Shown: piece by piece, positions 29,601 to 54,790 of the stretch | Layout of the letters: each line of letters opens with the position of its first letter | Numbering within the stretch: position 1 is the first letter of the stretch | Made by a program: the position numbers and the translations under genes | Source of the DNA: a bacterium | GTDB lineage: Bacteria > Elusimicrobiota > JBDRMW01 > JBDROU01 | Direction: 5' to 3' | Length of the DNA stretch: 64,000 nt | NCBI GenBank assembly: GCA_043809745.1 | Contig: JBDROU010000079.1 | Location: forward strand, 1,163-65,162 | Notes under the pieces: generated by a model | Databases searched by the model: none | The model's input: only the letters and a program-made list of their open reading frames with translations | Told to the model about the DNA's origin: nothing

Positions 29601-32600
29601 GCAAACATAAAGACTTATAAGACCAGAACAGACCAGCTTAAAGACTCGCTGAAACTGCTTCAAACCGGCATATACGGCGAAGCGTTGGAGGTGGGAGCTG
29701 CTGTATGGGCAAGCATGAGAGATACTGTTACTAAAAACGCGTATGTTGATATAAAGGATAATGTTACGGGAATCACCGCGGTTGCCTCATGTTTGGTGAG
29801 CGACAAGAAAGGCAATCTTATATTCAGTGAATCCTTATTCAAAAAAGCCAATGAACAGTTAAAATCACTCTCAGCGCTCGGGTTCGATTTCGGCCCGGAG
29901 CCTGATGCCGGATACCGCATGCTGATGACTGCAGGTAAGACACTTAAAACAGATCTGGCGCTTATAGGTGCTTTGATAAAAATTAAAGATAATTTTAAGA
30001 CAATTAAAGATATTGGTCAGGGCAAGTTTGAGGCTCAGGAAGCCGAATCGATCGCGGCGTGGCTGGTTTACGATACTCCTGAAGATGTTCGAACTTATAC
30101 AGAAGATTATCTGGTAATCAAGCAGGATAAAGAAGCCGGTAAAACCGCCGCTCAGAGGCTTTTGACATTGAAGATGTTAAGAAATCCGGGTTTGCCGTTA
30201 TCCGGTAAAAAACTTGCCGCGGCCAGAAGCGCGATGATAGAAAAGGGTGATACAGTTGGTAATATTATCGGTGTTAAGCTTGAAACCTATATAGAGAAAC
30301 TTCAGGGAGCTTCTCTCGGGTTGGTCTTGAACAAGCAGGGGGAATACGAGTTCAGCAAATCAAAGCTGACAGAGTTAACCGCTATAATAGGCGAATTAAA
30401 GGACAGCAAATTCAACTTTAATATTGAACATAAGCTAGCGGGATTTATTGTATATGAACAATGGGCTCAACAGCTGGGCAGCTATGATGCAGCACGGGGA
30501 TATTTGAAAGGTGTCAAGGATATGTTCGCTCTCGTGAAAAGCGGAAGCAAGACGGCATACAATCCCGGCGAGGCTGAAGTTATTGCCATGATGCTCGGTC
30601 AGGCGAAGGTCAGCAAAGAAGACGCGGTTTCATTGCTTAAGCTTTACGACGTACTGAGAGATACAAAAGAGCACGGCAGTACCGCGGAAGCCAGGCTCAT
30701 TTTTGCTCAGAAGATGCACAACAGCGGCATCACAGAGAAAGGGTTCAGCGCGCTGATTGCCGATATCGGTTCACAAAAAGACATGATAGCTAAAGTCATG
30801 GGAGAGATGGTTGATCCCAAAGATCTGCTGGTTATCGCATTCTGCGGTTTGAAAGAAAAAGAGCCGGGAGTATTCAAACTGGATGAAGCTCAATTCAAGA
30901 ATATAGGAAACATCGTGGTGCAGTTGAAAGCGCTCGGTTTCAGGTTTGCAGGCGATGACAGTTCGCTGGTTGCCGGATTTACTTTTGCGAACAGGCTGAT
31001 ACATTCGATGAACAGCGCTGATAAAGCGGCAAAATATCTGGACAGCGTATATGCTGTATTCAGAGAGATTTCATTAATCGGTGCAAAGTCTTTCGAAAAC
31101 GGTGAGGCTGAGGAAATCGCTTTGACGCTTGCGCAAAACGATATTGCGGAGCAAAAAGCGGTAGAAAATACATTGATTAATTACCTAATTATTAAAGACA
31201 AGCAGGAGTTCGGCGCAACGCTTACAGAGCGGCTTTCAAGCGCGCATACATTTTACAAGAAAAACATAAACGGAGCCGAGCTTAAAGCCGGGATAGAAGC
31301 CTGGATAGAACATAGGCAGTTTATCAAGGATAACGCCGGGTTTGAGATTAAGAACTCGATTGTCGGAGTTATAGCGGCTAAGGAAGGCATGACTGAAAGC
31401 AAATCCGGGGAATGGAAATTTTCCGAAGACACATTCCTCTCTAATTTGAAACTAATCGAACCGGTCGCGGAAGAAACGCTTGAACGCAAAATACTTGAAC
31501 AAGCCGGTATTTTAAGAGACATGCTGAAAGAAAAGGGCATCACAGGATTAGGGCTTCGTGAGACAATCTCATTGATGCAGGACGGTGAGGTTAAAGGCGC
31601 GGCGCTGACGCCGGAGCAGATCCAGCAGAAAATTATGTCGATGCGCCGGGTTGCCGAAAGCAATCAGATGAAAGCTCTAACCCAAACAGCCACAGCGGGG
31701 ATGAGCGAAGAAAAAGCTGCTATCTTCCGGATGGATATAGTAAGGAATATGAAGGTAGATTGGCTTAAGGTATCGGACTCGGATATAAAATTGAAGAGAA
31801 TCAGCTACGGCGGCGCCAAACTATACCTGGCAGAGATAACGCTTACCGTAGACAACAAAGAGTTTGTGGTGAACCGTGTTGCTGCAGGCGACAAAATTAT
31901 AACGGTTGATCTGGACGGCAAAAGACTCTCGGAGATATTCAGCACAGTAGAATTCGCCACTGCCTACAGTGATATATTAAATACGCTGACCGAATACATA
32001 AACGCCGATCAGGATATTGAGTCAATAAGGCTTGCCGGCGGCAGGGTAATCAGCCGTGGCGATATAAGTGTGAATGCCTTTGAACTTGCACTGCAGAAAG
32101 TAATCAGCGGTAAAGCGGAGCTTAAGCAATCGGTTTATTTATACAAGATGAAGGACGACGCTGACAAGAGTTCGCACCAGAGCATGAGGATTTTCTATAC
32201 CTCCGATTCCGAAAAGAAATCAAATGAAACCTGCACCGTAACATTCAGGTTCGATGCGGACGGAAATCTTATAAACTCCGAACCCGAGATAAGAAGCAGC
32301 GAGTCCAGGTCGCCTCCGTTTGTTGCGGCTCTCAAAAAAGCGGTAGAGCAGTTAAAGAACAACGAGAATGCCTCTATAAACAAGAAATCCTTTAAGATAA
32401 TCCTTGCTAAGATGGAAGGGCCTAAAGAGAAAATCCCGGTGATGTTTAGTATTAAGAACGGCAAGAGAATGCTGTTTATGCTGGACCGCGGTGTAGAACT
32501 TCCGGGAGTAATGGTATATGAAGAGGCAGCAGCAAAGAGCAAAACAGGAAAGACGATAACGTATCTCCAGCAGATATTCGGTATGGATAAGAATAATCTT

Positions 32601-35600
32601 ATTGAATTTAAGAACGACACGCTTATCGTTTCCAAGCTTGATGAAAACGGTAAAGCGCAGATATACTCCTCAACGAAGGTAAAGCGGGATGCTTCAGGGT
32701 TGATTACCCATGTTGCCGTAGAGTATTCCGAAGCTGGGATATATATGATCGGTAAAGATATGCATCCGATTGCCGTTAAAACTATTGAATGGGATCTTAC
32801 GGGTAAATCGCCGACTCTAAAGATAAACGGTTCTAAAGTTGAGGGCGCGGGTAAAGATTCATTTTCAAGTATGCTGAGAATGTTTGGTAAACGAGCTGAA
32901 TTTTATGAGATAGGCAGCGGAATGGTAAACGGAGTAATGGATAAAGATGAAACAAAGGTTCAATTCGGTTTTATCAATGATGTTAACGGAGGCCAGTTTG
33001 ATGCTGTAATTTTCGATAAATCGGGCATGAGTTTAACAAGGTCTTTTGATCCGCTGGGCAGTGAGTTAGCCAAAAAGGTGTTGAAAGACAGTTCGGGTAC
33101 AAAACATACGCTGAGTTTCTTTGACATAAATAATCCGGTATCAGAGATCGGTTTGAGGATTATGAAAGCTGCGGACAGGTTTTGCGATAATGAGTTTAGT
33201 GAATATGATGAAGCTGAAATGCCGATTTCCAGTGAATTCATGCAAGCCATAGACCGACAGCAGCAGTACCTGAAAGAATCGCTTGATTCAATGTTCGATG
33301 AAAATGCCGCATCCAGTGAAGCTGCATTTTCCAAGCTCTTGATTTGCGCGAAACTTCAATCCGTATTGGATGTGCTGGGGCAGAAAGAAACTGTTGAGGG
33401 GCTTGCTTCAATCACAAACAAGGACGGCAGGTTCTACCCGCTTGCGCTGGTTGATCATTACGAGAAGCTGATCAACAAAGACAATCTTAAAAAACTTACA
33501 AGCAGCACCGTTGCGGGCTTGGATGCGTTAAGGGCAGGCTACAGCCTAAAGCAGGAATCAAAGAACCATAAGGAGTTCTCAGCAGGGGCGAACCGTTTAG
33601 AGAAGGATATAGAGAACTATATTGAGCTTATACCGGGCTGGATGAAAAGCAAGAATCCCGAGATTACCGAAGAGATGGGTAAAATCAGTGAAAAGATATC
33701 TATGGGCGAGCTTGCCATATCCATGAAAGAAAAGGCGGTGAACCTTACCGCCAAAGAATGCGCTAAAGCGGGTATTTTAACAGTTTACAACGGATTTGCG
33801 GAGCTTGCCGAGAGAGGATATGCAAATTATGCGGCAGGCAAAGACGAAGCCGCATCTGTACAGCTGGGAGAAGCCAAGAAGTATTTCGCTGTGATAAATC
33901 TCTTTACCGGTTCACAGCAGTCGGTGGATAAAGAGAAAGCAAAGAATTTGGGCATAGACGCATTCCTGAGAATAACAGACGAGAAAGCCGAAGAAGCGAA
34001 AGCGCTTGCTCTTGCCGGCGATATAGCGGCCGCGTATCAACTGGCGGAGTATCTCAAGGGCAGATACGAGGTAGCTGCCAATATGCTTAAGAACAACGAT
34101 AACCAAAAGAAGCTGCCTAAAATGACCGATTTAGAACAAACCCTATTTAGGGAAAGCACCCGTGAAAACTATCACGCTTACGCTGCATATGTTTCGCTTA
34201 ACCGCGAGATCGCGGAAACCAGCTTGCACAAAGCGGGCGAGGATGTAAGGTTCCTTACCCAAATAGCAAGCATTAAAGACCAGAAAGCCAAAATAAACGA
34301 GAAGCTGGCTGAACTCAAAAAAGATAAAGCAAAGCACGATAAAAAAATTGAAGATCTGAATCAACAGATAAGGGAGCTTGAAGCCCAGGCCAATGTCCGA
34401 ACCCAGTCAGATCTGGCAATATTGGAGGGCAGTAAACGGGATTTCCGCACAGCTCCTCAGGAAAAGCTGAAAAAGGCTAAGAATATCGAAACCGAAATTA
34501 AAAATGAAGAAAGATACAGTAAGGAATGCGTGGAATCGATATCAGAGTGCGGAAAGGCAAAGATTGCCGCAGAAAATGCGGAAATACGCATAGCAGACGG
34601 CATGATCGATGAAGCGTCAGATTATTCCAGAAAAGCAACCGCCAGAATGCGGGTGGTGAGCATGATTGAAAAAGTAAAACGGTTTATCAGTAATAACAAA
34701 GTACCTAAGGAAGTTGTAGCCGGGTTGAAGCCTGAACAAATATTCGAGAAGTATTATGATGATGTTATAAGAATGGCGAATGAAGCGAAGTTTAATTACA
34801 TGCTGGCAAGTGAAAAATCATCCGATGAATATGAATATAAGAAGTACATGGAAAAAGCAGAAGGGTTCGACCAGGCCAGCGTAATAGCCGAGATAGTCGG
34901 CGACCACAGGAAAAATCTTGTAAAGAAAATCAAAAATACCGATCAGGTCAAGATAAATAGATATCAGGAAGAGCTGAAAGTGCTGGAGGCAAAATTAGCG
35001 GACATGAAAACCGTTCCTAAAAACGGCATACGCAGTTTATCCAAGAAGTTGTCATCCGATGATGAAAGAGTAACCTCAGCTAAAGAAAGTGCGCTGAAAC
35101 AACAGATTGAAGTTGTAAGAAGGAAAATTACCAATGAGAAAAATAATCCTTTGTACGGCCAGAACGGCAAGAGAAGTGAGACCAACAGAGCCTTCATGCT
35201 GCTGGGCGAGCAGTCACTTAAAAACGACGAACTGTACGAATGGGAGAAAGCGGCAAAGAATTCGGATATAGTGCCGGATCTGGAACAATCTGATTTCTTC
35301 AAGACAGCATTAACAAAGAGTTTCGAAGAAAACCAGGAATTAACAAAAGATTCCGCTTTATTGCGCGACGCTTTAACGCAGGAGTTTAACAGAATGCTTG
35401 CCAACCCGGCCGAAAACGGGCTTACAGAAAACGCTCAATCGCTCTTCAACGATCTTACGGAAGCAGTGGACAGAGGTACGGCGCTTCATATATTCAGCAG
35501 TGTTATCGGGTTTGCGGAAAAATTACGCGCAGGTACGAGTAATTGCGGTACGCGTGAGTTTTCAGCCAAAGAAGATCCTTTAGACAGCCTGACCCATGTG

Positions 35601-38600
35601 CTCTACAAATATATTTACGATAAAAATGATATTGGCAAGATAGTTGATCTGGTGGTTGATAAATCAGAAAGCAGGCTTAAAGGGTTCAGCATTCTCACCG
35701 CTGACGGGAAAAAGGCAAAAGCTGAAATCGTATATGAGAAAGATCAGCTGTCATACATACATTTCAGGAATGATGAAGAGATTTCTGCAATTATAAACGG
35801 TCAGAAAGTGGATAACCTATTCAGGGATTCTAAGGTGCGGTTTGTGAGCGGTTACAGCGCTCAGGCAGGTCAGATAAACGGCACGCTCTGGGAGGTTAAA
35901 GGCGCAGACGGCAAGTTAACTCTTATCCATCAGGGAGATGTGTTCAATGACAAGGAATATAATACGGATACCGGCGAAAAAACGCCGCAGATATTTCAAT
36001 TTACTGCCAAAGGTTCCCTGCAAGAAAACGGGGATATAGACTGGAGTTTGGGTAACAGTCAAACTGAAATAGATGCGGTGAGTTACTACGACAAGAAATG
36101 GAAAGTTGTTAAGGACTTAAGCAAGGCCGATAATAATCTTGTAAATAGAATCGCAGGAGAAAGAAAGTTAAAAGACATTGTAATTTACAATATAGTTGCC
36201 ATAGAACAGGAAGCTAAAATACAAGAAAAAGATAAAACCCAAGCACATGGTATTTATAAATCTAAAGGATTCGATTCAGACAAGATGCAAAAGCGGATAA
36301 AACAATTACGTGAATTTACATCTCCTAATGAAAGTAGGGTTGCCCAAATAATTGTAGGATTTGAATCTGAAAGTAAAGAACAGCAGAACGGCATGGTTGT
36401 TGCAGTAACACCGGTTATAACCATGCAGTGCAATGGCAGCGGGGAAGGCGAATTCCGTCAGATATACGAAAAAGACGGTGTTAAACAGGAGATGGTGGAT
36501 CCGGGCATGATCAACCGCGCTTGGTCATGGCTGGGAGATAAAATGGGCATGGAAACTACTGCCTGGGAACCGGTTCCTCAAAATGAAGGCGCTATGGCGG
36601 ACATATTGACCTGGTTCAAATTGGGTGTTGTTTGGGCTGTTGACGGCGGTGGAACAACCAGTAAATGGAAGCTGAATGAGTGGGACCGGATGATGCACAA
36701 GGAGCATTCGTTCGGATTTTTAGGTAAATGGACGGTTCCCCAGATAGCCTTCTGGACTGAAGTTGTAGTAACGGTAGCAACAATTGGCACGGGTGCGGTT
36801 GTCACAGGCTTGAGAAGGGGCTTTCTGTGGGCGCTTAGGACTGCGGGCGTAAAAAAGGCAGAGAAATCGATTTTATCGAGTTCGCTTGAATGGCTTGAAA
36901 CCCGTGAATTGGCACACAAACTTGCAGAACAAACAATTAAAAGCTGGGGTAAAGAGAATATAGCGAGTTTTACTGATGAATTTATCGCAAGGCATGCTAA
37001 AACGGTTGCACAACGAACTGCTATTAAAGGTCAGGAAGAAGTATTGGAAAAACTTCTAAAGAAAAGGTTGACAAAATGGGTTAAACGTCAGGCAGCAATC
37101 ATGTCATTGACCAGCGGCGGCGGCGGTGCTCTTGAGTCGGTGATGGGGTTTGCAAGAAACGGCATCAAGCCTAAACTGCTGAATCCGCTCCAGCAGGCAT
37201 GGGGTACCGCAAAGTTCATGGGTTATAAATTCAGCAGAGGCCTTATAGTAAAAGATTTCGCTCATTTTACCGCGACTTTTGCTATATACAACGCAGGGAT
37301 ATCGCTTATAGAACGCATGGCATACGGCGCCAGGTTTGATAAAGACAAGAACAGGGCTCTAACCCTGTTTGAACAGCTCGGAGCTGATGCCAAACTGGGT
37401 GTTGAACAGGCGCTAACTATGGGCCCGGTTCTCTTGCTCTTAGGCCCGTTTGTATCGCCATATGCATCGAAAATACTCTCATCAACATTGGAAAGAGTAG
37501 GCGCGAGTAAAGTAATAGGTATTAGTCGTGTTGCTAAAAGTATTTCCACAAGCGGTACGCTGGTATTCGGTGAAGAGGGGTTGCTCTCAACCTGGGGTAA
37601 GATGCTGGAAAGAAAAACAATAACAGCAGACATCGGGAAAATGCTTAGAGCAGTTGGAAAAGGGGCCGGTGATCACAGTCTGGCATCGGTTTCAACTTAC
37701 GAAGGTTTGTTCGGTTTTATGGAAATTACAGTTAGAGTTACCCAGAAAGCATTGGAAAAAGGACTGCATGTTAATGAATGGGCGGCAGAGATGATCTCGC
37801 TTTTTGTCAGCCCTCAGACTTTTAAGGGTATGGGCAATCCGATGAGCCTTAAAAATATCAGACAGCTCTCAGAGATCGGCAAACTTTCCGGTGAACAGCA
37901 GAGGGAGCTTCTGGTAGCCGCTAAAGAAGTAAAGATGATTTTCGAAAGTAATGACTGCAAAGTTATTGCCAGAGAGCTGGATTCGATGATAAGGAAAATA
38001 GATAAAGAGCTTGCTTCCGCTGAAATTAAGGAAGAGCCGGTGCTTTCGGAATCACAGAAAAAATCGATTGAAACATTAGCCCAGAACACCCCCAACAAGG
38101 AAATCGGCCTGACAGGTGAATTGGGGAGAGAAATAGCGTCTGTGTTGGTAAGTCCCCGTGCGGAAGGTGTAGTCCGCTTGCCTGTAAAACCGAAGTCGGA
38201 GGCTGTAACAGAGGGCGAAGCAGTTAAAGCTAAAGATGCAAAAGTCATCTCAATCTACAAGAAGGCCGGAGAAGCAGAAATAGCAGCCGAAAAGACAGCC
38301 GAAAAGACAGCTGAAAAGACAGCCGAACCGACAGCTGAACCAATAGTTGAGCAGACAGCTGAACAGGCAGCCGAATTAGCTGCTAAAATGCATGAAACTA
38401 CGGAAGCGCCATCAGGGGAAAAAGTGATTAAGTTAAGCCAGGATGTTCCCAGAAAACCTACACAGGGCGGTAAGAAAGCTGTAATAAGTTTAGAAGGAAG
38501 GGGCAGCAGGCCTGAGAGAGCAGAAACACCGCCGCAGGAGACGAAGGAAACATTAAAACAGGAATCTTCTGTACAACTTGAACCAGCTTTGGATGCTGAG

Positions 38601-41600
38601 CCTGTGCAGCCTAAACGCGGGGAAGTTGTAAAGCCCGAACAATTTAAGAGAACCGTTGAAGGGCAGACTGAATCACAAAAGGGTAAGCGGAGTACGGTAA
38701 GCGAAGTTAAGGATGTTTTGGAAAGTACTCTGACGGCTGAGCAGTCAGGCAAACCGGATGCTGACATTATACCTGAGGAAAGGCTTCAGAAAAAAAGGGA
38801 GCGAATAGCGGACCGTGAAGCAGAGAAGGAATCCAAAACGGCAGAACCCCATGAGATGGAAACACAAACAGATCGGGATCAGCAAGCGCATGAGTACAAG
38901 AAACAGCTGGATGAGGCATTAAACAAGGCAGAGGTTGCGGATTTCATAGAGAAGATGGGTCTCAAAAACAGCGTTACTGAAGGATTAAAACAAGATGCGT
39001 TCAAAACGGTGCAATCACTGGTAACTGTGCTGAATAACAGGATGATAACTGATCCCGCGCAGATGGATGCAAAAAATCTGAAAGATCTTGCAGAAGGTAT
39101 AAACCTGCTTTACCAGGCTGTTGCCCAGCTCAAAGGCGTCAACCCGGGTGAAGCCGCAGAGATGTTCCGTATGCTCTCTGAACGCACCAACGATCTTTTG
39201 AAATCTTTCGAGTCGCTTGCCAACAGTTTCCTTGGCAAATACAGCAAACAAGAATACAGGATATCGGATACAACGGAGCTTAAAAAGGAAGAAGCTGAAC
39301 TGGCGGAGATATTCCAGAAGCTTACCCAAATAACGCAGATCTCTCAATCAGGAGATATAAGCTACAGCGGCGCTGTAAAGAATAAGGTCGGAAAAACCTA
39401 TACTGATATAGTATTGAGCATTACCAGAGCCGAACAATCGGCACAGAGTATTTATAATGTTTCTTTGAGGCTGGAAATAGCCAAAACTGCCGCGCTGTCA
39501 GGCCTCGTACCTGAATTTATGCTCAAAAAAATAAGCAAAGGTGACGGGAAAGGAGTATCATTCAACATAAACAGTGAAATTGGTTTGGATGGGGAATTGA
39601 GACGTTACAAAAATGAAATTCTGGAGGAAGCCAGATGGATTGAAAATCTGGAACAATGGGCTGATGTTAAAGAGCCATTTCTTGCAGATTTACATAATAA
39701 AATTCAGATTATACTTGATTCTTTCGGTCAGCAGGGTCTTCTTTCTACCGGCAGGGCCCGCGAAATAATGGATATGCTTGACGCGTATTATAACGCTTAT
39801 GAAAAAGTATACTCAAACACGCCGCAGGATATGATCAAAGTTATTAAAAATGCTTTAGACAGCTATGATAAGGTTTTAGATATGGCAGTTGTTAGCAGAT
39901 TTACAGCACCGATAGCCAAAGAAGCAGCAGTAAAAGTAGACGGATTATTCAAACGCTTCAACGAGATTCTGAAAGATGGTAGAAATAATGTACAAACAGT
40001 TGAAGCTGAAGCTGTTTTGGATACGGCGCTTTCTGTTGTGACAAGATTCCGCAGCAGAGATATAAAAATGTCCAAGTTCGAGAATGTTGTCGAATTTTTG
40101 GATACACTTGTGAGCAACACAGAACATGTTGATTCTCTTATTGAAGGAGCAACTAGCGTCGAAGCCGCGAAACAGCTAGTGTCCATTGTGGCAAAAGTGC
40201 AGACAGCAGTACAGAATTTAAGCCCCGATAAAGTCGGCAAAAGAGTTGATACCTGGGTAAGAAGCATAGCAGAAAAGCTAAACTCCAATGATGCGCCGTT
40301 AACCAGCAAAATAGCGGCTCTTCTTATAATACCGGATAAAGCATCAATAGAAAAGCTTCTGCCTGAAATCCTTAAAGATACGAAACAAACAAGAGATTTA
40401 ATCGAACTTTTAAGTTCACCGGACACATTTGTAGAACAGTTAAAATGCCTGACTATTATAAGATTAGTTGAAAGAAGCGGTATTTCTGAAAGCCAGTTAT
40501 CTAGGTTATACAATAATATTAGTGGAGCTGAACGGTCAAAAGTAAACGAGAATGTTGCTCTTCTGAATGTAAAAATTGTTGTATTAAAATCCAATATTAA
40601 AGCCAGGATGGGAATTTCTCTGCATGATGCTATCACTTTCAAGGATGGCAGCATAATAATAACAAACACCAGAGGTGTTGAACATGTTATAGCCAATGAC
40701 AGCATTATGGGGCCTTGTCTGCTCGAAGCGCTTAAGCCGGAAGCTACGCTCTATGAGATACTTAGCAAACAATTTGGAGAAAAATTGGGAAAAATATTGG
40801 AAGAAATGGGCTTTACTACTCCGGAAGATATGGCATTGCTGGAAGCAACATCATTTGAAAGTGTAGTAAACGGCTCTGCAAATATCAAAAATGGTCGTAA
40901 CATAACAACAATAGAAGAAGCAGTTAAATTCATACAAGAAGGCATTAAGCAGAATAATGCTCAGATGTTTGTTGAAGGTAACGCGGCATTTAGCCGGCTG
41001 GTGCTGAATAATGAAGAATACGCGAAGAAATTCAAGAATTTGACGGATCGATGTCTTAAGGAAACCAACCTGGAATTTGAGATATTTAGCTTAATAGATC
41101 AGGTTGGTAAAGTATATCCGACATTGGCAAATAAGTTTGATTCTGCTGACGAAGCTTGGTTTAAGGCAAATATAATTGAACCAATAAATAGAGTGATAGA
41201 CAGCCTTAAGAAAGAAGAGAAATATTCTGAGATTAAAGAAGAACTTCAGCTTTTCGGCGATTCACTGCAAAAGATGATAAAGTTTCATTATGAGAATAGA
41301 GTTGGAGAAAATGAGATTAGGAATTTCCAAGAACTGCAAACAAATGCGGAGAATGTTTTAAAGGAAATAAATATCGCAGTGAATAATTTTGAAACAAGGC
41401 TAAAAACAAGCCGCTCTGCTCAAAATCCGGATGTTATTTTACTTAATGAACTCCTGAATTTTGCGGCAGACAGCGTAAAGGTTGCGGTTAATGGAATGCT
41501 TAAGGGCAATCTTGAAAATTCGAAGGCTCTCTTGGAAAAAGATGTAAAACTTTATGAATTGGCATTAGAAAAGAAAAAAATACCTAAGAAAACTATATCG

Positions 41601-44600
41601 CAGAAAAAGAAACCATCTTCTAAGAAAATTCAAAGAAGAATTATTCGTAAGCAAAAACAAAGATACTTGGAAGCTGAGGAACAAATCAAAGTAAAGTCTA
41701 GTAGCGAAATAAATAGTGCCAGAGAACAACTGAAGGAAAACAGTAAATTGAATAGCTTGATCAAAGACGCGAGAAAGAGCATAGATAAGCTAATGCCCGG
41801 TGTTGAAAGTAAACGCGCTGAACTGGAACAGAAAAGATTGGAAATTTCAAAACAGCAGCTTATTGGAGAGTTGTTAGCAAAAGGAGGTACACTTCCTTCA
41901 TTTGTACTGGACAGCGTGATAAAATATGAAATATATCTTGCAGAAAAGCGGGAGCTCAAGAGTTACAGAGAAGCATTTAAGGTTGATCCACCAAAAGATG
42001 AAAATGGTAATTTATTTACGGTTGAATTTAAGGATCCTGCTTCAGCAAATGATCCGCTGCTTGTTCAAATAAGAGATGTAATAAATAAAGTACTCGTTGA
42101 CAGAGGACAGAAGTTTGAGAAATTCCCGTTATTAGAGAATCAACCGGATCAGATTTTAGATATGCTGTTCGGTTCAAACGTAGCCTATGAGTTCGGGACC
42201 GGAGGTGGAAAAACTTCGATAATAATGAATTATGTTAATGCTTTGCGCTGGGAACTTTTCTGTAAAGAAAATGGCCCGCTTGCCCATAAAGGCTACCAGC
42301 GCGGTGTAAGCTTATTCACTTCGGATATAAAATCGCATGAGGCATATGAGAAATATAAAGAACGGCTCTGCAGGTTAATGGATATTAAGACAGATTCTCC
42401 ATTAGTGTTCAGGTTGGATCAGGAAGCTATGGATAATGCCAGAACCGATCCGGAATGGCTGGTTGCAAAGATTAAAAATGCCAAGCTTGTTTTGATAGAT
42501 CAGATAGGGTTCCAGTTTATAAAGCACGGTGAATGGTCCAGAGACGGTGTGACTCAGTTCGGCGGCAGGGAAGGCTACAGGCTGTTAACAGAGAGAGTAC
42601 ATTTTATTTTTGACGAGTTCCAGTCCGCGATACTGGAGAAAACTTCCGCGATAGTCGGCGGCGAGGGCAGCCCCAACTCGCCTGCTATCCAGATGGCAGG
42701 CAGGTATGTGCATCGGGCCATTGAAGATATAATATTTAATCAAAGTGATTTTATAAAGTCATTAACCGATGCTGATAAGGCAATTTTTGAAAATGAGTTA
42801 GGCGAGCTTAGAGTGTTGAAGAATGATATGGAAAAGGGATCAGCATCTGCAAGTATAAAAGCAAGGAAAGAATATGTGAATAAGCAGCAGGCATTCTTAA
42901 AGAAATACTGTATGGATACCAATAAGGGTTCCTTAAAGAATGAATTCAAGGAAAAAGTAGACGAAGTAGCAAATTCATTATTAGGAGTACGTCCGGAACT
43001 ATTGGGAGCACATCCAGAACTGAAATCCCTTATGAAAACAGGGGGATCAAATGAATTGTCCGGCGAGTATAATTGGATACACAGGGAACAGCATAAGAAA
43101 GATTCAACATTAAGCGAAGCTGAGATATACAAGAAAATACAAAACGAAATTAGGGCGTCGATCAATGCCCGCGACAATGTATTGAAATTTACGGATGAGA
43201 ACTATTATGTGGAGTTTGAAGGCCAGGAAGGCAAGTCTGAGGTTACTGCTGAACACCGTAATATACCCATACCCAACCATGGTGGACCCTCACCTAATAT
43301 GAGATGGGCTGATTCATATATGTCGGTTGCGCTCTACTTCCACGCGACAGCCGAAGTAAGAGCCAGGAATGCAGAGCTTAACAAGATGCGCACCAGCCCG
43401 GAATCTCTGCAGGCGACCATGGGTACTGTTTTTGCTGATATGCTCAGGAGAGGCAGTTTCGGCTCCGGTATGACCGGTACGCTTCAGAATGTTATGATGG
43501 CAAGCGAGATCGGATTTTACTTTGAATCAATCGCGATGGGGGATATGGCAGGCAGGTATCTGGGCCCGCGCAGGAATGCGATAGAAAATGCTTTCGCTTA
43601 TACAGATAAAGATGGAATGTTCAGCGCGCTTGAAAATTATTTAACCGCACCTGTGGAAGGATCTGAAGCTGTAGACGGTGTAGTGGTAGGTGTTACGAGG
43701 CAGTACGGTCAGGGTGAGCAAAGGGCTCAGTTGGAAGCATCTGGAGCATTCAGGGACAGGATGCAATTAAAGCAAAACGATGCTAATAATTTTGTGCTTA
43801 CTGTGCGCGAAAACGGCAAGTCGGTTGAGATTAACAAGACATGGGTGGAAAGGCAGAATTTAAGCGATTCAGCACAAGCTGAATTAATGGAGCTTTTTAA
43901 TGCAGGAGGAGAAACCATTAATCCTAATGCGCTGGAGAAGATTTTAATAAGAGATAGGCTGGTTGATGTGCTATCCAAAGAGGGTCCGGAATCCAAGCTC
44001 AAAGGGGAAGATCTTGCGATAGCCAGGTTGTTCAGCATGGAAGGATTAAAGGATAAAAAGATGCTGGTTTATATTAACAAGGAAGGCAGTGTCGGAACCG
44101 ACATGTTCGTGCCGGAGGGAGTTAAGTTTGCGCTGCTTACTGATGTTAATGTTACTTTAACTGATATTGTTCAAGCATGGGGCCGCTCAAGAGGAATCTT
44201 CCTATTTGAATCAGAAGGATCAGCTAAAGGGAAATCATATGCTCCGATACTTCATGAAATGAATACGTTTGTATTCGACTTAAACAACGAGCTGAATATG
44301 GAAAACGGCAAAAAGTTCACTCCAAAAGATTTTATGAGAATGCTCAGGACAAATGAGCTTAAAGACTGCCAGCAGAATGTGTTTAATACATACCGCGATG
44401 CGATTCATCAATCTGTATCAAACATGTTTGCTCTTATGCTTGATGTGCCCGGCTTGAGCAATGCTGACCGGAATCTCATACTGGATAGGATGCAACAGCA
44501 TCAAAGCAACAAGACGAAATCGGATAAATTGGAAAGCTCTATGGGTGATCCTCTGGAGGTGTTGATAGAAACGGCAAATGCGACCAGTGAATTCTTGAGG

Positions 44601-47600
44601 AACCTTGGCAATAACGATGCCCAGTTCAAAGATATGATAAACAGAAACAGCGAGAGCAAGCGAATTTATGACTACTGCGTGAATCCGGAAGGGAAAGATT
44701 TTGATATATCAGACTTTATGGTTACTCAAGCCGGCAATAACAGCCTGAATGCCAGTGCGCTGCAGAATGTACTCTTTGTAATGCAGGCGGGTATATTCGG
44801 TATGGCAAAGGTTGGGGATATAATAGCCGTGGCCAGGCAGTATATTCCGAGGTCGCTCCTGCCGGAGAAGGTTTCAAAAGGCAGATCGGCTGAGGCTGAA
44901 ATAAATACTATAGCTGATGGAAGAAATACCGTTAATACCGATGCGGGTCGAGAGAAATATGATAAGGCTATGCAAAAGATGCCAAGAGATTTAAAAAGAA
45001 AGGTGTTTGGCACTGAAAGCCCGACTCCGGATTCGTTGTTAACGGCGTACGGCCGAAGTTTTGTAGCCAATGCTGTTGCGGCTATAAATCTAGCCAACAC
45101 CGAAATAGAAATTCTGGATCAAGATGATAATCCAATTTCCTATAATGACGAAATGCTTGAATCCGCCGTTAAATATGCGGCGGCAATCGGAGCGGATGTT
45201 ATAGGTGATGATGGAACGCCAATCACCGCACCTCTTGTCGCAACCGATGAGGATTCCGTACCGCTTGTTAGTGCTGCTAGAGACTCTGCTAAAGTGCAGG
45301 TTATACCCGAAGATCATGATACAGGCGATAAGGTAACCGAAGGTTTTGTTGATGATATTCAGACCGGCCAACCTGAAAGAACTACTCCAGTGGTTATACC
45401 CGAAGATCAAGACACATTAACCGGTAGTACTGTATCTTCAGATTCAATCGAAGCTGAAGAAGGGTTTGAGCCCGGATATGTGTATGCTAGGGCACTAAGG
45501 AATAATGCAAATAATATAACAGTGGTTGCTGAAACGCTTGCTGATGAGGGTATAGATTTTGAAGCAGCCATGGTGGTAGGCTCTTCGTTGTATGACTTAG
45601 GAGGGCTCACTCGTTCCAACAGCAAAGATCTTGCTCAACTGGGCAACAAGGTTCAGCGTAACAGAAATATGAGTAAGCAGGCAAAGAAAGAAAAAGGTAA
45701 AGATGCCGATCAACAACAGAAATCTTTGCGAGTTAAAACACAAGATCAAATAGCAACGTACATAGAAGATCATAAACTTACTGGCGGTATGGATAAACAG
45801 GAAAAGAAACAAATAAACAGATATAGATCAATAAAGAACAGCTACGATAAAGGCCAAGAATTGTCGAATAGGTTGCAGCAAACGCCGCCTGATTTGCAGG
45901 GGTTATTTAGCTCAATAAGGAATGGGTTAAGAAAAATAGGACTGGCAATAAGGACAGCGATACAAGCTTTCAATATTAAGAGGATTGAACGCTCGATTCA
46001 AAACACTTCTGTGGCTCAATTCGAGCTTGAGAAGCTTGATAATGAAAAACACCGTCAGAAGACATTCTCCTGGATTGTAAGGCTTAATCCGCTGATGTCA
46101 TTCGATAGACTTAAAGATCTTTCAATACGGCTTCGTTCAGAGAGCGAAAATGCCGCTTTGACGCAGGTTACCGCAGGAGCCTTTGAATCATATAATAAAA
46201 ATGGAAGCTTCAGCGGAAATATTACTTCCAGAAGCATGCTCTATGCTGCAGCTCAAAAGATTGACCTGAACAAGATTTTCGGCAAGCTGAAGAGCAAGCA
46301 TAATCTGATCAACAGATTGTATAAACAGATAAGGAAGATTGATCTTACAAAAGCCTTCATATTCAGCAACAGCAGAAATGATACTGTAGCAAGGGTTCTG
46401 CAGCCGGGAACAACAGAGAAAGAGGCGCAGGCGCTGTTGAACGCGAATGTATTCAAGAAGAGAAAAATATTACGCTTGCAGGATCGGCTGCTGTCGCAGA
46501 AAAAAGCGGATGAACTGCAGAAACTGAGCACAGAAATTGATACCGCGCGCGCCGCCATCGCGCAGGTTGAACAAAAGCTTGGTAAGGCTTTAGAGAAACT
46601 GAATAAAGGATTTGGCACAACTACCAATGATCCCGAATACGCTGTCAGGCAGATTAAGAAAAGCAACCGTTATTGGGACATAAAAGCGCGTCTTCAGATG
46701 AGAGCAGAAAATCCCAACGCTAAGATAACCGAACCTGAGCGAAAAGAGTTAACGGAGATGAGATCGCTTTATGATTCTGTGGCATCGCTGGAAACCCTTG
46801 TTGCCGAATACCGTAAACATACCGCTGAACTTCAGAAAAAAGCGGACATAAAGACCGCCATAACGGGCAATATAAATAAGGATATTGAGAAATATGCTGA
46901 GGTTTTGGATGAAGATGGATCTTTAATTGTTCTTCAGACGCGCATCGCACAGGCTAAGTCGAAGAAAGTTCCTATAACCGTAAAAGCGCTCAAAGATATG
47001 GTAGATGAAAGCAACAGATTCTCGACCACTCGTACTGCGGGTTCACCGCTTACACTTGCCGATGCGTTAATTCTTATAGACAAAAACAATGGTACGTATC
47101 ATCTCCCGAAGAATGATAGTGGTGACCGCAAGAGTTTTGCTGAGGTCGTGGAGTGGATGGGAGAAGAATTCGGTGAGAAAGTAGACGAAATTTCAGCTGC
47201 GGATGCGGTTAGTGTAGCCCGGGCGCTTTACGAGATGGGTGAGACTCCGGCCGAAAGAAGTAATGTAAAACTTTCCGAATTCTGGCGTATAATGAAACGC
47301 GCCGGTGCGGCAGGCGATGAAACCAGGCTAAAAGCGGTGGTTGCCGCGCTTGGGTATGACGGAGCGTTATTTGATGCTCTGCCTGCAGATGTAACCTATT
47401 ACAGGACTACTGGACGCGGTTCAAAGTTTGTAGATTCCACTGTTGGAGGGACGCTGTATGATCTTGCTGAGGGCAATATTTCAGAGATACTTAACCCGCA
47501 GAATTATGATGAATCAGAACGAGCTGGAGTAATGAAAAAACTAATCAAATACGCTGATACACTTAAAGATAAATTTGTTGCGGTATCAGCCGGCAAACAG

Positions 47601-50600
47601 GAAGGCGGCACAAATCAATTGAGAAACCAGCTGGAGTCGGTTCTGAGTATCACAGCTGATAAAGCCAATCTGGAACTGCTTGAAGCAGGAGATAAAGAAA
47701 AAGTATCTTCGATATTAGCCAAACTTGCAGTTAACGATATAGATCAGGGGAAGAGCCTGGAAGAAACTTTGGGCATGATGGATTCCTGGTCAGAAAAGCT
47801 GAATGCCGCTCCGGCTGAAGAAAAAGCGCTCTTGGAATCTGTCAGAAAAGAACTTACCGTGAAGGAGAAGAGCGAGTCTGTGGCGCACTTAAATGCCGCG
47901 AAGGCCGTTGACGATAGGATAGAGGCCATTATAGAGCAGGAAAAAATCTCTGAATCCATGCCTTCTATAAGAACCCGGTTGACAAAAACATTTGAAACCA
48001 GGCTGGAGGTTATAAGGCATGCGGAGAATATGAGTGTGGAAAGCGCCTTGGCCGAAATAAACGTGATTATTGATGATATACAGGAAGAAGCAGAGTTGCT
48101 GGGGAGCAGCTCAAAAGCCCTTCTGACTGATGCATATATGTATAAGTTCTTTGTAACTGAGCAGATTATACAAGATTATGAAAAATATTTCGAATCAGAT
48201 GTAGCTTTACAGTACGCGCATCATAACCGGGAGTTCAGGAAGTTGTTGTCCTTAGACGGGTATAAAGAATACAAAGAGCACTATCAGCAGAAAGTAAACG
48301 AGCTTAGACAGTTAAACCGCAGCGGTTTTGAAACCATTAGGCTATTGTTGAAACTGGATCCTTCGATTGCAAGCAGGCTTAAGGATCAAACAAAATTCCT
48401 GGAATTCCTTAAAACATCCTATAAACATGATACAGATACCGCTAACAGGATGCGCTATATATACTATGGATTTGGGTTGATTGAAAGCTTAAAATCCTCA
48501 GAATTGAAACAAAAATATACAGATGAGTTTGAAACATTACTGAGAAATAACCGTTTGGGTATAGCTATGTATTTGAATGAGCAGCTAGGTGACGATATGT
48601 ACAGAGTGGAAAGTAAGAATCTGGAACCTTTGGCTGCCGCGCATATGATAATAAGCGATGATAAGAGTAATAATGAAGAAATAGTGAAACTGGTGCGTGA
48701 TGAGTTCAGAGATGATGCAAAAAGGCGGTTTGCAGAAAGGGAGTTGCAGCACATACCTGGCAGGAATGATGTGCTCCCGCCGACTGCAGTAAAAGAGACA
48801 AAGAATGAATTAACCGTGCGAATGAAGAAAGTAACGCTTCTTAAAGAAACAATTATTGCCATGGCTGATGCAAACGATATAGAAGGCATCGAACAGCTGC
48901 TGGTGCAGACGGTAGAGCTTTACAATGAGTTGTGGGAGCGCGGGTATGCGCCTCATTTTGAAGGTGCGGATGCAAATGGGAAAGTGTCACAATCCATTGA
49001 CGATATAATGATAAACATCGGTACGCTTGAGGATGAACTGCTTCATATAGACCCGCTGAACTTTACGCAGGACGCGAAGTTAGCTCAGCAGCTTATGCCG
49101 AAACTTGCCAAGAAGATGCTGAACGATGTTGCCAGACATCTGCCTAAACCGATGGATGAGAAGGTTGTTAAGAAGTTAGAGAAAAAGCTGGAGGAAGCGG
49201 TAAAGGCGCGGTTTGCGGTCAATAAATGGAATACCGCGCTGGTTGATTCAAAGAATTTGGATGATTTTGAAACCGGATTAGAAGCTGTGCTGGAGTCCGC
49301 GTCCACGAATGATGTTTATAGTATAGATGTACTGGAAAACATAGCTCAGCAGACCCCTGTGAGAAGCTTTATACAGGCGCTGAACAAAATGAAGCTCAGA
49401 GGCGGTGTGAGCATAAGAATAAATGTGATCGGTGATGATGAAATTGACAGCCGCGACGAATCGAGGATACTGATCACCAATAACAAGGAGCACGCATCGC
49501 TTGCCAAAACGCTGTTTGTTGATGAGGGTGATGATCAGAATCAACTCACTGGCAAATTCGGCCAGCTGATTTTGCTCGGCGTAACGTTAACTCAGTATTT
49601 TAATGAAATAAAAACCGGTACTTTTAACAACAGCAACAGAACAAGGCTGCAGAAACAATTTTCACTTCTGGCGAAAAACATTGCCGCGCTGCCTGACAAT
49701 GAAATAAACGAACTTTATAATCAAAGCAAAGATGCCGCGAAGGGCATCAGCGTGCCTCTGCCCGCCTGGAAGGAAGGAGAAACCAGGATAACTGTTGAGT
49801 CGGTGAATCAACCGCGAGCAGCTCAGCTGGTTCAAGAATCCAAGCGTTTGTTGCGCGGCCGGGTCCCGGATATGAAGCAGAAAACAGAGGGGAACCGCAT
49901 GATGGTGCGGGTAAGAAGTGTTGAGCAGCCGCTCGGTAAAGCGATTCTTAATGATATCAACAGTAAGAAGTCAGTGGAAGCAAAGGTGCAGCTCAAAATC
50001 GATGAGGTTATGCGCTTGCTTGCCGATTTGTGGAACCTGGGAGGATACATACCTGAGCCTGTGGCAGACGTTAAGGGATATTATCTCATGGATAGGATAG
50101 GGATGCTGGAAGGCAAAATGGTGTATGCAGATCCTATGAGTTTAACCAATGATGAGACAAGAACAGGAGATATTAAGAACCAGCTTGCAAAAGCAATAGT
50201 TTCTGATCTGGAAAAGTATCTGAATGCGAGTAAAGTTGATAAAAAACTGGCAAAGAAAATAACCAACGGCCTTGAAAAGAAAATTAATACTCAAATAAAT
50301 AAAACGTTCGGATTTGAGCATGAACAGTGGAACGATCTTGACACATACACAATCTATGTTATCCAAAGCGTAGCTGAAACGCCAGGTATTAAAGAAGTGA
50401 TAGATTCGATAAATCAGGGTGAAGATTCAAGGATAGACAATAACGTAAAGTTAGAAGTCATAGATAAAGAAGCAAAATGGGACAGCAGAAAGGTGCTCAT
50501 AACGGACAATAAGGAATTTGAACAGTTGGGTAAAGCATTGGTGATTGACACTAAAACTGATGTGCTGATGCTGGAAAAAGAGTTCAGTTCCATAGTGATG

Positions 50601-50943: not shown

Positions 50944-51888
50944 CTATTTTTTACGGAAGAAATTTGAGTTTTTTATGATTAAAACGTTTGATTCCGCTAA
51001 TATTTTGAATTGTTCAAGAAAATGACCAAAAGCCTCGTTGTTGAATAAAGATATTACAATCAATTCTAAAGATGAGTTGGTTTTCCGCATGAAATAATCG
51101 AATATCTGCTGAAACATGGTCTTTGCGAGAGCATCGTAAGGAAACTTTCCAGTTGCGACACCTAAAGCAGGAATAGCAATAGTTTTTATGCTTTTTTCTT
51201 CCGCAATCTTAAGTATATTGGTTAATGATTGTTGTACATATGCTTTTGTTGTTTTCTTTTGTATTTCTCTATCTGGGAGCATAATGGCGGCATGCAGTAT
51301 GTAATTAAAAGGCAAATAACCGGCTTTTGTAGCTACAACGTCACAGATGTTTATCTCTGATCCGGTTTGTCTTGCTTCCTTTCTTATTGAATCTCCGCCT
51401 TTTACCCTTATAATTGACGCAAGGCCCTGTTCCATCCACAGATCAGTTGTGTCCGGGCTTACTATTGCTTCAACAGGGAGGCTTATTAAGTCCCCTTGCA
51501 GTATTTGAATTGAAGTGCGGTCCAGTGTAACTGTACAAAAAGAGTCTTCCAAAATGTCAGATAGGTTCGTGTCATTTCTTATGTTAACGCTATTTGACAG
51601 GAATTCGTCGTCAAAGGTTGAAACCTGCTTTAATTCTCCCCCGGTATTCTTGAGCGAGTTTCCCAGGTCAGTGATTATGGATTCGAGAAGGTCTTTTTCT
51701 TCAACTGTCAAATCTTTACTCATCTTCTCATTAACCATTTTTAGTATTTCCAGCGGAAGCACTTTGGTATTTTGATTATTTTTATCCTCTGAGATTTCTT
51801 TTATTTTATCTTTTGCAAGGTCGTAAAGATGAAAAGCAAGATGATTTAAATACGGATTAATTTTCTTATCTTCTGAAGTTTCTGACAT
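50944..51888 (-). CDS. macro-domain (ADP-ribose-binding / Appr-1-p-processing fold) protein with ~130-aa N-terminal helical extension, paralog A
   Basis: QILQGDLISLPVEAIVSPDTTDLWMEQGLASIIR aligns to Af1521-type macro KLAQGDITQYPAKAIVNAANKRLEHGGGVAYAI. ILHAAIMLP to FHTVGP. IKTIAIPALGVATGKFPYDALAKTMFQQIFDYF to ESIAFPAVSAGIYGCDLEKVVETFLEAV. The canonical NAAN and GGG loops are replaced by SPDT and MEQGLAS. Confidence 0.6.
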   Translation of the reverse strand: MSETSEDKKINPYLNHLAFHLYDLAKDKIKEISEDKNNQNTKVLPLEILKMVNEKMSKDLTVEEKDLLESIITDLGNSLKNTGGELKQVSTFDDEFLSNSVNIRNDTNLSDILEDSFCTVTLDRTSIQILQGDLISLPVEAIVSPDTTDLWMEQGLASIIRVKGGDSIRKEARQTGSEINICDVVATKAGYLPFNYILHAAIMLPDREIQKKTTKAYVQQSLTNILKIAEEKSIKTIAIPALGVATGKFPYDALAKTMFQQIFDYFMRKTNSSLELIVISLFNNEAFGHFLEQFKILAESNVLIIKNSNFFRKK

Positions 51889-52018
51889 ATTTATTTTACA
51901 GCTCTTCTCAATATGCTTACATATAAATTATATAAAAGGACAGGCCTTAAGCACAAGGTATTTTCAATTCAACTTAAAAATTAATATTGCTTTTCGCAGA
52001 TGTTTTAGGAGAACTGCT

Positions 52019-52954: not shown

Positions 52955-53056
52955 GTTATTATTTAATAGCCAATATAGTCTGGATTAATCAACAAAGGCA
53001 AAGCACAAAACAACCCTCGTTGCATTCTTTAAATAAAAAAAGCGGTTCCTAATTAT

Positions 53057-53263: not shown

Positions 53264-53269
53264 TCTCCA

Positions 53270-53278
53270 CCTCCTTGT
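53270..53278 (-). promoter_or_regulatory. Shine-Dalgarno (AGGAGGTGG) of the small membrane protein gene
   Basis: rc of + strand ...ccacctcct... located 5-6 nt upstream of the ATG. Confidence 0.6.
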
Positions 53279-53391
53279 TTAGTAAACTGCTTTGTTTATA
53301 TGGGTTACAAATTAATCATATAAAAAAAATCAGAACTTGTACATAACTTATTAAAATATATAGGTAAAATAGAAAAATTATGATTTGTGCT

Positions 53392-54775: not shown

Positions 54776-54790
54776 ATTACTTCCTATAAA

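Follow-up and report, generated by a model that had tools for sequence, protein, structure and literature searches.

A module that, judging from its sequence, is a genuine two-RecA-domain SF2 ATPase of a small and very divergent family was found inside a giant protein encoded in the 64,000-nucleotide stretch of DNA analysed here (the window). On balance, we favor the view that this module is a rapidly evolving offshoot of the SecA_DEAD modules reported in Omnitrophota giants, with the SecA/SecA2 motors as its closest detectable relatives among the families tested. It does not qualify as a true SecA: its Walker B is of the DExH type, its motif V has no SecA arginine, its motif VI is of the GRxR type, no similarity to the SecA scaffold and wing is detectable, and it has a C-terminal domain of its own (~260 aa).

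The giant ORF and the layout of the module

In-frame stops were absent from nt 3 to 50855, which thus form a single ORF with all five motifs inside. The ORF list gives this frame as 234..50855, and amino acid numbering starts from the GTG at nt 234. The TM-like segments mentioned in the initial annotation were located as two hydrophobic clusters, at aa 6347-6475 and aa 12167-12417. Cluster 1 sits where the beta-rich repeats of the N-terminal region give way to the helical rest of the protein. Cluster 2 precedes the ATPase module by ~1,550 aa and is a candidate membrane tether for it. No second SecA-like ORF was found within the window. The features, all on the + strand, are as follows:

1..50855, + strand: giant ORF, open at the 5' edge of the window; stop codon 50853-50855; product of at least 16,950 aa, a lower bound because the protein's N-terminus is cut by the window edge
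19272..19658, + strand: hydrophobic (TM-like) cluster 1; Kyte-Doolittle 19-residue means up to 1.96
36732..37484, + strand: hydrophobic (TM-like) cluster 2; Kyte-Doolittle means 1.4-1.6
42096..45053, + strand: whole conserved ATPase module, aa 13955-14940, common to three Omnitrophota giant-protein fragments; extents from BLASTP and phmmer
42096..42668, + strand: RecA-like domain 1 (NBD1-like), aa 13955-14145, from hhalign against a SecA alignment
42195..42218, + strand: Walker A (motif I), aa 13988-13995: GTGGGKTS, with K13993; G, K and T invariant in all four family members
42603..42662, + strand: Walker B (motif II), aa 14124-14143: FIFDEFQ and then SAILEKTSAIVGG, with D14127 and E14128; D-E invariant
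42669..43208, + strand: insert separating motif II from motif III, aa 14146-14325; variable and rich in K/E, with gaps and little conservation in the alignment of the family
43230..43448, + strand: conserved block preceding motif III, aa 14333-14405, which aligns to SecA together with motif III
43467..43481, + strand: motif III GMTGT, aa 14412-14416; family consensus G[ML]T[GA]TL
43491..44273, + strand: RecA-like domain 2 (NBD2-like), aa 14420-14680, with family-specific inserts; includes motifs V and VI; covered up to E. coli SecA 594 in the end-to-end hhalign alignment
44085..44108, + strand: motif V GSVGTDMF, aa 14618-14625; T-D invariant
44172..44195, + strand: motif VI QAWGRSRG, aa 14647-14654, with R14651 and R14653; Q, G, R and R invariant
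44274..45053, + strand: family-specific C-terminal extension, aa 14681-14940 (~260 aa), kept in three relatives

Across the family, 225-285 aa separate motif II from motif III and 112-134 aa separate motif I from motif II, and the family alignment contains no conserved cysteines. In a low-confidence model, the K/E-rich insert was mostly helical and the C-terminal extension was helical.

Conservation of the catalytic motifs

A sequence check found every peptide quoted in the initial annotation exactly once, in the stated order and frame: the Walker A peptide FGTGGGKTSIIMNYVNAL starts at aa 13987 (nt 42192), REGYRLLTER at aa 14112 (nt 42567), the Walker B peptide HFIFDEFQSAILEKTS at aa 14123 (nt 42600), the motif III peptide SFGSGMTGTLQNV at aa 14408 (nt 43455), and the motif VI peptide QAWGRSRGIFLFESEG at aa 14647 (nt 44172). 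The claim that five SecA motifs occur in order was thereby confirmed, and all five proved to be conserved across the relatives described below. The further claim that the surrounding residues track E. coli SecA held for YVNAL, which pairs with SecA YLNAL; REGYRLLTER resembles SecA only loosely. GMTGT, which had been called diagnostic of SecA, is not strictly so, as the corresponding motif in DinG reads [TS][SA][AG]T[LI].

Searches of 1.84 billion (1.84e9) representative proteins identified three relatives (phmmer E 1e-24, 4e-13, and 3e-9), all of them partial giant proteins from Candidatus Omnitrophota / Omnitrophica MAGs. No further relatives were found in the viral contigs scanned or by tblastn against plasmids, and homologous-protein searches with the segment, the full alignment, or the core-only alignment gave no matches. 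So far, judging by the relatives found in these searches, the family is known, beyond the giant protein of the window, only inside Candidatus Omnitrophota giant proteins. Pfam analysis of the relatives' giant ORFs detected only Peptidase_M24, in one relative.

Identity among the four sequences (the giant and its three relatives) is only 24-27%. Nevertheless, the Walker A G-K-T, the Walker B D-E, G-x-T-x-T in motif III, T-D in motif V, and Q-x-x-G-R-x-R in motif VI are invariant. Because three relatives keep all of these motifs at such low identity, the motifs are not a chance occurrence, and their invariance at ~25% identity indicates selection on catalysis. By its conserved motifs, the module thus appears to be catalytically intact.

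The motifs are SecA-like in several of their forms, namely GMTGT in motif III, G..GTD in motif V, Q..GR in motif VI, and T[PS]...G after Walker B. Walker A follows the form E-x-x-T-G-x-G-K-T, which is common to SecA and DinG; one relative, P0001, has the atypical TAFGKT. The Walker B of the family is DE[FI][HQ], which is DExH-like, versus DEVD in SecA. After Walker B, the relatives have DE[FI]H and then [KN]TP..[ILT]G, for which the SecA counterpart is DEVDSILIDEARTPLIISG. Motif III is exactly the SecA GMTGT in two of the four members. Motif V has the form IN..G..GTD, compared with TNMAGRGTD in SecA, and the SecA arginine is missing.

Comparison with SecA and with other ATPases

In end-to-end hhalign comparisons, the core alignment of the family scored 54.6 (z 12.2) against 15 SecA sequences, spanning E. 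coli SecA 83-594, and 49.7 (z 12.0) against four SecA2 sequences; the controls scored 41.0 (DinG, eight sequences) and 37.0 (DEAD-box, four sequences). The families tested as alignments were three (SecA-type, DinG, and DEAD-box), RecQ, UvrB, Rep, and UvrD being represented by single sequences. These alignments suggest that SecA/SecA2 are the best end-to-end profile match among the families tested, by a modest margin. Individual blocks were also compared. The NBD1 block matched the 15-sequence SecA alignment over ~170 columns (E 4.4e-5; E. coli SecA 73-252). The block before motif III, taken together with motif III, aligned to SecA 326-415 (E 1.5e-3 with the SecA alignment and 3e-4 with the SecA2 alignment), and the motif III block matched SecA at E ~0.004. 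The motif V-VI block matched two large plasmid-encoded proteins in their SecA-like domains (E 0.007). The matches of the NBD1, pre-motif-III plus motif III, and V-VI blocks to SecA-type sequences were colinear, and for none of them did any of 100 column shuffles reach the observed score.

According to the initial annotation, the insertion between motifs II and III lies where SecA carries its preprotein-crosslinking domain (PPXD). As a pointer to a PPXD, this is weakened: a large insert at this position is not specific to SecA (E. coli DinG has ~210 aa there), and a PPXD could not be demonstrated against shuffles. Tested alone, the pre-motif-III block was placed correctly in SecA (326-366, the last ~70 aa of the insert) but did not score above shuffles, and a clean PPXD remnant was dropped as an assignment when the signal was lost upon removal of motif III from the block. 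The rest of the insert (the 'mid' block) gave no SecA match by hhalign. The PPXD is at best vestigial in this module, and the pre-motif-III block may possibly be a vestige of its C-terminal part. Downstream of motif VI, no similarity was found to the SecA helical scaffold, two-helix finger, wing, or C-terminal tail. Assignment of the C-terminal extension as a SecA scaffold/wing was rejected (hhalign against the SecA alignment, E 0.35; no Pfam match).

Standard searches did not recover SecA. The giant's segment and all four members gave no match to Pfam SecA_DEAD (PF07517), SecA_PP_bind (PF01043), or SecA_SW even at E<=10, so that the profile check proposed in the initial annotation came out negative. 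An NCBIfam search yielded no SecA family, and sequence searches of the PDB (phmmer and hmmsearch, with the single sequence and the family) yielded no SecA; nor did any of these searches bring up another family convincingly. Against E. coli SecA itself, neither BLASTP nor hhalign with the single sequence gave a significant match, and HMM-versus-sequence comparisons with the SecA set were at noise level in both directions. The only Pfam hint was PF00270 DEAD, below cut-off, in two of the four members (E 0.006). AlphaFold2 models of the 840-aa module (pLDDT 40) and of NBD1 alone (pLDDT 52) had no Foldseek match against the PDB at E<1; with such pLDDT values, structure gave no answer. The description of the segment as a SecA-like translocase motor therefore stands in part: it is an SF2 module with its motifs in the SecA order and with SecA/SecA2 as its best end-to-end profile match, whereas it has no Pfam SecA domain, no SecA-type Walker B, and no detectable similarity to the scaffold or wing.

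An unlikely alternative, though one to be taken seriously, is that the module belongs to some other or undescribed lineage of SF2 ATPases, for instance as an XPD/DinG-related DExH helicase acting on DNA or RNA, and that its likeness to SecA is general to SF2. When the Walker A block was compared alone, the DinG (E 1.3e-6) and DEAD-box (E 1.3e-5) alignments fitted above SecA (E 1.9e-3); moreover, the Walker B block matched the DinG Walker B in register (E 0.003), and the SecA Walker B was not convincingly found with this block. The family also shares with XPD/DinG (Rad3) motif I of the form E-A-x-T-G-x-G-K-T, the DExH Walker B (DE[FI]H), a motif III ending in T-L (...T[GA]TL, like DinG TSATL), and an extended II-III insert; the single Pfam hint to DEAD points the same way. 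However, DinG matched nothing past motifs I and II, as the motif III, NBD2, and pre-motif-III blocks gave E values of 0.2-0.8, and it scored below SecA end to end. A DinG-type Fe-S domain needs cysteine ligands and extra length between motifs I and II. With 112-134 aa in this interval (versus ~190 aa in E. coli DinG) and no conserved cysteines, the family has neither the room nor the ligands for such a domain. The DEAD-box hhalign match was confined to ~40 columns around motif I, and the family has DE[FI][HQ], G[ML]T[GA]T, and Q..GR.R, versus DEAD, SAT, and HRxGRxGR in DEAD-box RNA helicases. Furthermore, the published ATPase assignments found for Omnitrophota giants are all SecA_DEAD.

It is very unlikely that a SecA-derived module is delivered as an effector, or acts outside the producer on prey or host, instead of exporting the giant protein. 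Precedents for such a role do exist: effector domains of Amoebophilus, an amoeba symbiont, include SecA-like helicase-related domains (PMC3482391), SecA motor domains occur in ~3,000-aa proteins on plasmids of Mycolicibacterium and of the ciliate symbiont Ca. Bandiella, and Omnitrophota giants have been proposed to act on prey cells (10.1101/2023.11.21.568195). On the other hand, an ATPase needs ATP, which favors a cytoplasmic location; no delivery signal or processing site was found near the module in the window; and the module follows a hydrophobic cluster, as in membrane-anchored Omnitrophota giants (10.64898/2026.06.07.730766). A degenerate pseudo-ATPase kept as a structural element, or a chance pattern of motifs, is exceedingly improbable. 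The arginine missing from motif V (GRGTD in SecA) and the atypical Walker A of P0001 could be read in this way, but the catalytic residues of motifs I, II, III, V, and VI are all invariant, and conservation in three independent relatives excludes chance.

Known systems, a possible mechanism, and meaning

The reading that we favor, an offshoot of the SecA_DEAD modules, places the giant protein within an arrangement that has already been reported. Most Omnitrophota giant proteins reportedly carry divergent SecA_DEAD and preprotein-binding domains, and these modules lie after TM regions, lack a scaffold/wing, and form very long branches (West-Roberts et al., bioRxiv 10.1101/2023.11.21.568195). 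A PF07517 architecture cluster of 20 proteins was described in a set of 916 long Omnitrophota proteins (Nielsen & Lui, bioRxiv 10.64898/2026.06.07.730766). The initial annotation had regarded a translocase-type ATPase fused to a giant protein with TM-like segments as unusual; in view of these two reports of SecA_DEAD in TM-bearing Omnitrophota giants, that assessment is out of date. Like the published modules, the present one is a very divergent ATPase motor without SecA scaffold/wing, located downstream of a hydrophobic region in a TM-bearing protein of >10,000 aa. Unlike them, it escapes Pfam even at E<=10, whereas the published modules were detected by Pfam (SecA_DEAD and preprotein-binding domains). 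Its DExH-like Walker B, arginine-free motif V, and own C-terminal domain also set it apart from the published modules as described.

With the motor of SecA/SecA2 (E. coli ~80-600), the module shares motifs I, II, III, V, and VI in the same order and a large II-III insert; SecA, however, is a free protein of ~900 aa, and here the motor is built into a polypeptide of 16,950 aa or more. SecA-type NBD1-PPXD-NBD2 without scaffold/wing has been described in non-canonical proteins as 'secondary SecA_DEAD proteins' (PMC4452313). The same arrangement is embedded in proteins of Mycolicibacterium arabiense pJCM18538 (3,473 aa) and of a Ca. Bandiella woodruffii plasmid (2,966 aa). The SecA domains of these plasmid proteins are easily recognised (local SecA HMM, E ~1e-60), in contrast to the present module, and the proteins are much smaller and come from unrelated phyla.

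As a working model, the module would lie at the membrane's cytoplasmic face, tethered by the hydrophobic cluster upstream. ATP would be bound between the two RecA domains through K13993, D14127/E14128, and R14651/R14653, and an open-close cycle would move the II-III insert as a clamp on an extended polymer, most likely, by analogy with SecA, an unfolded polypeptide. The initial annotation had raised self-driven export of the giant protein, a function that we can only infer. The module lies ~14,000 residues after the N-terminus and therefore could not help the co-translational export of the protein's own N-terminal beta-repeat region. A role in export or assembly, if any, would be post-translational, or else exerted in trans, with sister copies or other cargo as the substrate. 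In its boldest form, which we consider quite doubtful, the module, the upstream hydrophobic cluster, and the C-terminal domain would make up a self-contained membrane-tethered polypeptide motor that needs neither scaffold nor two-helix finger, perhaps not even SecYEG, and that exports or assembles copies of the >17,000-aa protein post-translationally. If true, such a motor would amount to a translocation system derived from SecA in minimal and autonomous form.

The finding is a highly divergent variant of an already reported arrangement and not a new phenomenon. How proteins of tens of thousands of residues are made, inserted, and exported is an open question for bacteria, and so far nothing other than the SecA-type ATPase that recurs in Omnitrophota giants offers an obvious clue. 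The present family indicates that such a motor can drift beyond standard domain models yet keep every catalytic residue, and Pfam-based surveys will undercount motors of this kind. The four-member alignment delimits a compact construct of ~1,000 aa. The function under selection in this family appears to be ATP turnover by a bare two-domain motor, and not that of the parts with which SecA docks to SecY.

The giant protein and its surroundings

In the ORF listing of the window, the giant protein is encoded at nt 234 to 50855 on the + strand (16,873 aa). Its frame is free of stops from nt 3 on, so that the GTG at nt 234 is not the real start and the product comprises at least 16,950 aa; the N-terminus and any signal peptide lie beyond the window edge. 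Amino acids are numbered from that GTG. Two hydrophobic clusters were located (aa 6347-6475 and 12167-12417), in agreement with the TM-like segments of the initial annotation. The N-terminal ~6,300 aa form a region rich in beta structure that contains YD-like repeats ('YDxxGRL', 'GYNxLGQ'), in which Pfam RHS_repeat was not matched at E≤0.01. It holds a recent tandem duplication of ~1,400 aa (window ~237-2624 and ~4464-6857; aa 2-797 and 1411-2208; two 400-aa stretches are 64% and 43% identical) and a Fascin/FRG1-type beta-trefoil (window ~13600-13970, aa ~4455-4580; Pfam E 3e-9 and 3e-8), the sole Pfam-detectable domain of the whole giant protein. Internal repeats were also found in the helical part of the protein: a ~300-aa unit in two to three copies (window ~29230-31440, aa 9666-10401) and, near the C-terminus, a duplicated ~100-aa unit (window ~49455-50790, aa 16408-16851). 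GC content is 0.40-0.46 across the giant ORF (window 1-50855), where GC skew and AT skew are both strongly positive, that is, the coding strand is purine-rich; in the downstream genes (window 52000-64000) it is 0.34-0.38, with skew near zero. The downstream features are as follows.

50944-51888 and 52019-52954, - strand: a tandem pair of paralogues directly downstream of the giant ORF, each with a ~140-aa N-terminal region and a Macro domain (ADP-ribose binding or hydrolase; Pfam E 1e-14)
53392-54811, - strand: overlapping gene pair, a nucleotidyltransferase toxin of AbiEii type (Pfam E 3e-19) and a probable antitoxin resembling AbiEi, the latter with no Pfam match
57722-60382, + strand: 886-aa protein with a hydrophobic N-terminus, a first ~650 aa free of annotation and a C-terminal adenosine-deaminase domain (Pfam E 9e-12)
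63294-63383, - strand: tRNA-Ser(tga)
63515-63589, + strand: tRNA-His(gtg)

An ATPase module and its relatives

The initial annotation had reported SecA-type motifs in the right order within the giant protein, and this held: each quoted peptide occurs once, in that order.

nt 42192 (aa 13987), + strand: Walker A (motif I), FGTGGGKTS...
nt 42600 (aa 14123), + strand: Walker B (motif II), HFIFDEFQ...
nt 43455 (aa 14408), + strand: SFGSGMTGTLQNV, which contains GMTGT (motif III)
nt 44085 (aa 14618), + strand: motif V, GSVGTDMF
nt 44172 (aa 14647), + strand: motif VI, QAWGRSRG

When aa 13941-14720 were searched by phmmer against 1.84 billion representative proteins, only three true relatives were found, P0001 (E 1e-24), P0002 (4e-13) and P0003 (3e-9); a fourth match was a repeat artefact. 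All three (HBH97907.1, MEW6100673.1 and MBI3616805.1) are recorded as 'partial' hypothetical proteins from MAGs of Candidatus Omnitrophota, and the contigs of two are a single open frame end to end (L002, at least 5,914 aa within a 7,581-aa fragment; L003, at least 7,361 aa). On present evidence, this is a rare module family restricted to Omnitrophota giant proteins. Homology spans ~aa 13,900 to ~aa 14,940, and the module thus includes a conserved ~260-aa extension after motif VI. In P0002 (L002, Ca. Omnitrophota MAG177, JBFMBZ010000002.1), the ATPase module is followed ~1,500 aa further downstream by a Peptidase_M24 domain (~nt 12320-13040, Pfam E 5e-20); no equivalent was detectable in the window's giant protein.

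Identity among the four family members is 24-27%. Invariant in all four are G-K-T (motif I), D-E (motif II) and G-x-T-x-T-L (motif III) and, on the NBD2 side (the second RecA-like domain), T-D (motif V) and Q-x-x-G-R-x-R (motif VI). The motif pattern is beyond chance, and the module is predicted to be a catalytically intact SF2 ATPase; a pseudo-enzyme or chance pattern is contradicted by the invariant catalytic residues and is most improbable.

SecA or another SF2 lineage

Standard searches were largely silent. Pfam SecA_DEAD, SecA_PP_bind and SecA_SW gave no match at E≤10 in the segment or any family member; a weak PF00270 DEAD match (E 0.006) in two members was the sole Pfam hint. NCBIfam yielded nothing relevant, and single-sequence and profile searches of PDB sequences no match. 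BLASTP against E. coli SecA was not significant, with short aligned pieces that do fall on corresponding motifs. AlphaFold2 models from the four-sequence alignment were of low confidence (pLDDT 40 when the whole module was modelled and 52 for domain 1 by itself), and Foldseek found nothing in the PDB with them at E<1. Motif forms were read off real alignments.

Motif forms in the module family, SecA and DinG
Motif I: family E-x-x-T-G-x-G-K-T; common to SecA and DinG
Motif II: family DE[FI][HQ]; SecA DEVD; DinG DE[GA]H
After motif II: family [KN]T[PS]..[ILTV]G; SecA ARTPLIISG (similar); DinG has no counterpart
Motif III: family G[ML]T[GA]TL; SecA GMTGT; DinG TSATL
Motif V: family IN..G..GTD, lacking Arg; SecA TNMAGRGTD
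Motif VI: family Q..GR.R; SecA QLRGRSGR

Profiles were compared locally with hhalign on alignment sets built for the purpose: 15 SecA, SecA2 and SecA-like proteins from PLSDB and E. coli, to which two SecA motor domains that lie inside large plasmid-encoded proteins were added; controls were four E. coli DEAD-box helicases, eight DinG, and RecQ, UvrB, Rep and UvrD as single sequences. The NBD1 block aligned with SecA 73-252 (~170 columns, E 4.4e-5). The block leading up to and including motif III aligned colinearly with SecA 326-415 (E 1.5e-3 for 15 SecA, 3e-4 for four SecA2; all controls E>0.04), and the motif V-VI block matched the SecA-like domains in the two plasmid proteins, from Mycolicibacterium and Bandiella (E 0.007; controls E≥0.1). 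For each of these blocks, 0 of 100 column shuffles attained the observed score. With variable inserts taken out, the end-to-end alignment spanned E. coli SecA 83-594, exactly the motor, and scored 54.6 (z 12.2) for SecA, 49.7 for SecA2, 41.0 for DinG and 37.0 for DEAD-box proteins.

Among the families compared, the SecA motor is the best-matching characterised relative, by a modest margin, and several features are not SecA-like. The Walker A block alone fitted DinG (E 1.3e-6) and DEAD-box proteins (1.3e-5) better than SecA (1.9e-3); the Walker B block alone matched that of DinG (E 0.003), and SecA's was not reliably found. The II-to-III insert, noted initially as the place where SecA has its preprotein-crosslinking domain (PPXD), is not unique to SecA, as E. 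coli DinG has ~210 aa there too. Without motif III, the putative PPXD remnant fell at the right SecA position but its score did not exceed that of shuffles (25/60 attained the score for SecA, 2/60 for SecA2), and the C-terminal extension showed no similarity to the SecA scaffold/wing. DinG has an Fe-S domain requiring cysteine ligands and extra I-to-II length, both of which the module family lacks. That the module belongs to another SF2 lineage, known or new, of DinG-like DExH type and working on nucleic acid, is unlikely on balance. The SecA-like motor of the initial annotation is retained on motif order and end-to-end score, against the missing Pfam and PDB matches and the Walker A preference, and SecA descent is reasonably probable. 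That descent combined with an export or assembly role is favored only slightly; such a role, taken by itself, is tentative, and effector-type use outside the producer cell is quite improbable.

Possible action and place among large proteins

ATP would be bound between the two RecA domains by K13993, D14127/E14128 and R14651/R14653, and, as the domains close, the insert between motifs II and III may be moved so as to clamp an extended polymer, which would most likely be a polypeptide if SecA is a guide. The hydrophobic cluster ~1,550 aa upstream may tether the motor to the membrane. Some ~14,000 residues separate the N-terminus from the motor, which is thus made too late to help with co-translational export of the protein's own beta-repeat region; action would be possible only post-translationally or in trans. 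Lacking the two-helix finger, it presumably could not work canonically on SecYEG.

The fusion of a translocase-type ATPase to a giant protein had been considered unusual, but the arrangement is already described. Most giant Omnitrophota proteins are reported to contain divergent SecA DEAD and preprotein-binding domains, which follow TM regions, lack scaffold/wing, branch on very long stems and occur alongside a normal SecA; they were proposed to help export the giant protein itself (West-Roberts et al., 10.1101/2023.11.21.568195). Among 916 long Omnitrophota proteins, a set in which TM helices or a signal peptide occur in 94%, 20 form a PF07517 architecture cluster (Nielsen & Lui, 10.64898/2026.06.07.730766). 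SecA-like domains were noted in Amoebophilus effectors (PMC3482391), and secondary SecA_DEAD proteins in PVC bacteria (PMC4452313). We also found SecA motors inside ~3,000-aa plasmid proteins, in Mycolicibacterium arabiense pJCM18538 (L018; ORF aa ~930-1511) and a Ca. Bandiella woodruffii plasmid (L019; aa ~861-1476 of 2,966); both are clear SecA motor domains (local SecA HMM E ~1e-60) that lack scaffold/wing, in proteins that bear the annotations 'hypothetical' and 'DEAD/DEAH box helicase'. By context, the module fits the Omnitrophota giant-protein SecA class. It has diverged more than the published modules, to the point that Pfam no longer detects it, and carries a C-terminal domain of its own. 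It is a highly divergent variant missed by standard models, one that opens no new question by itself.
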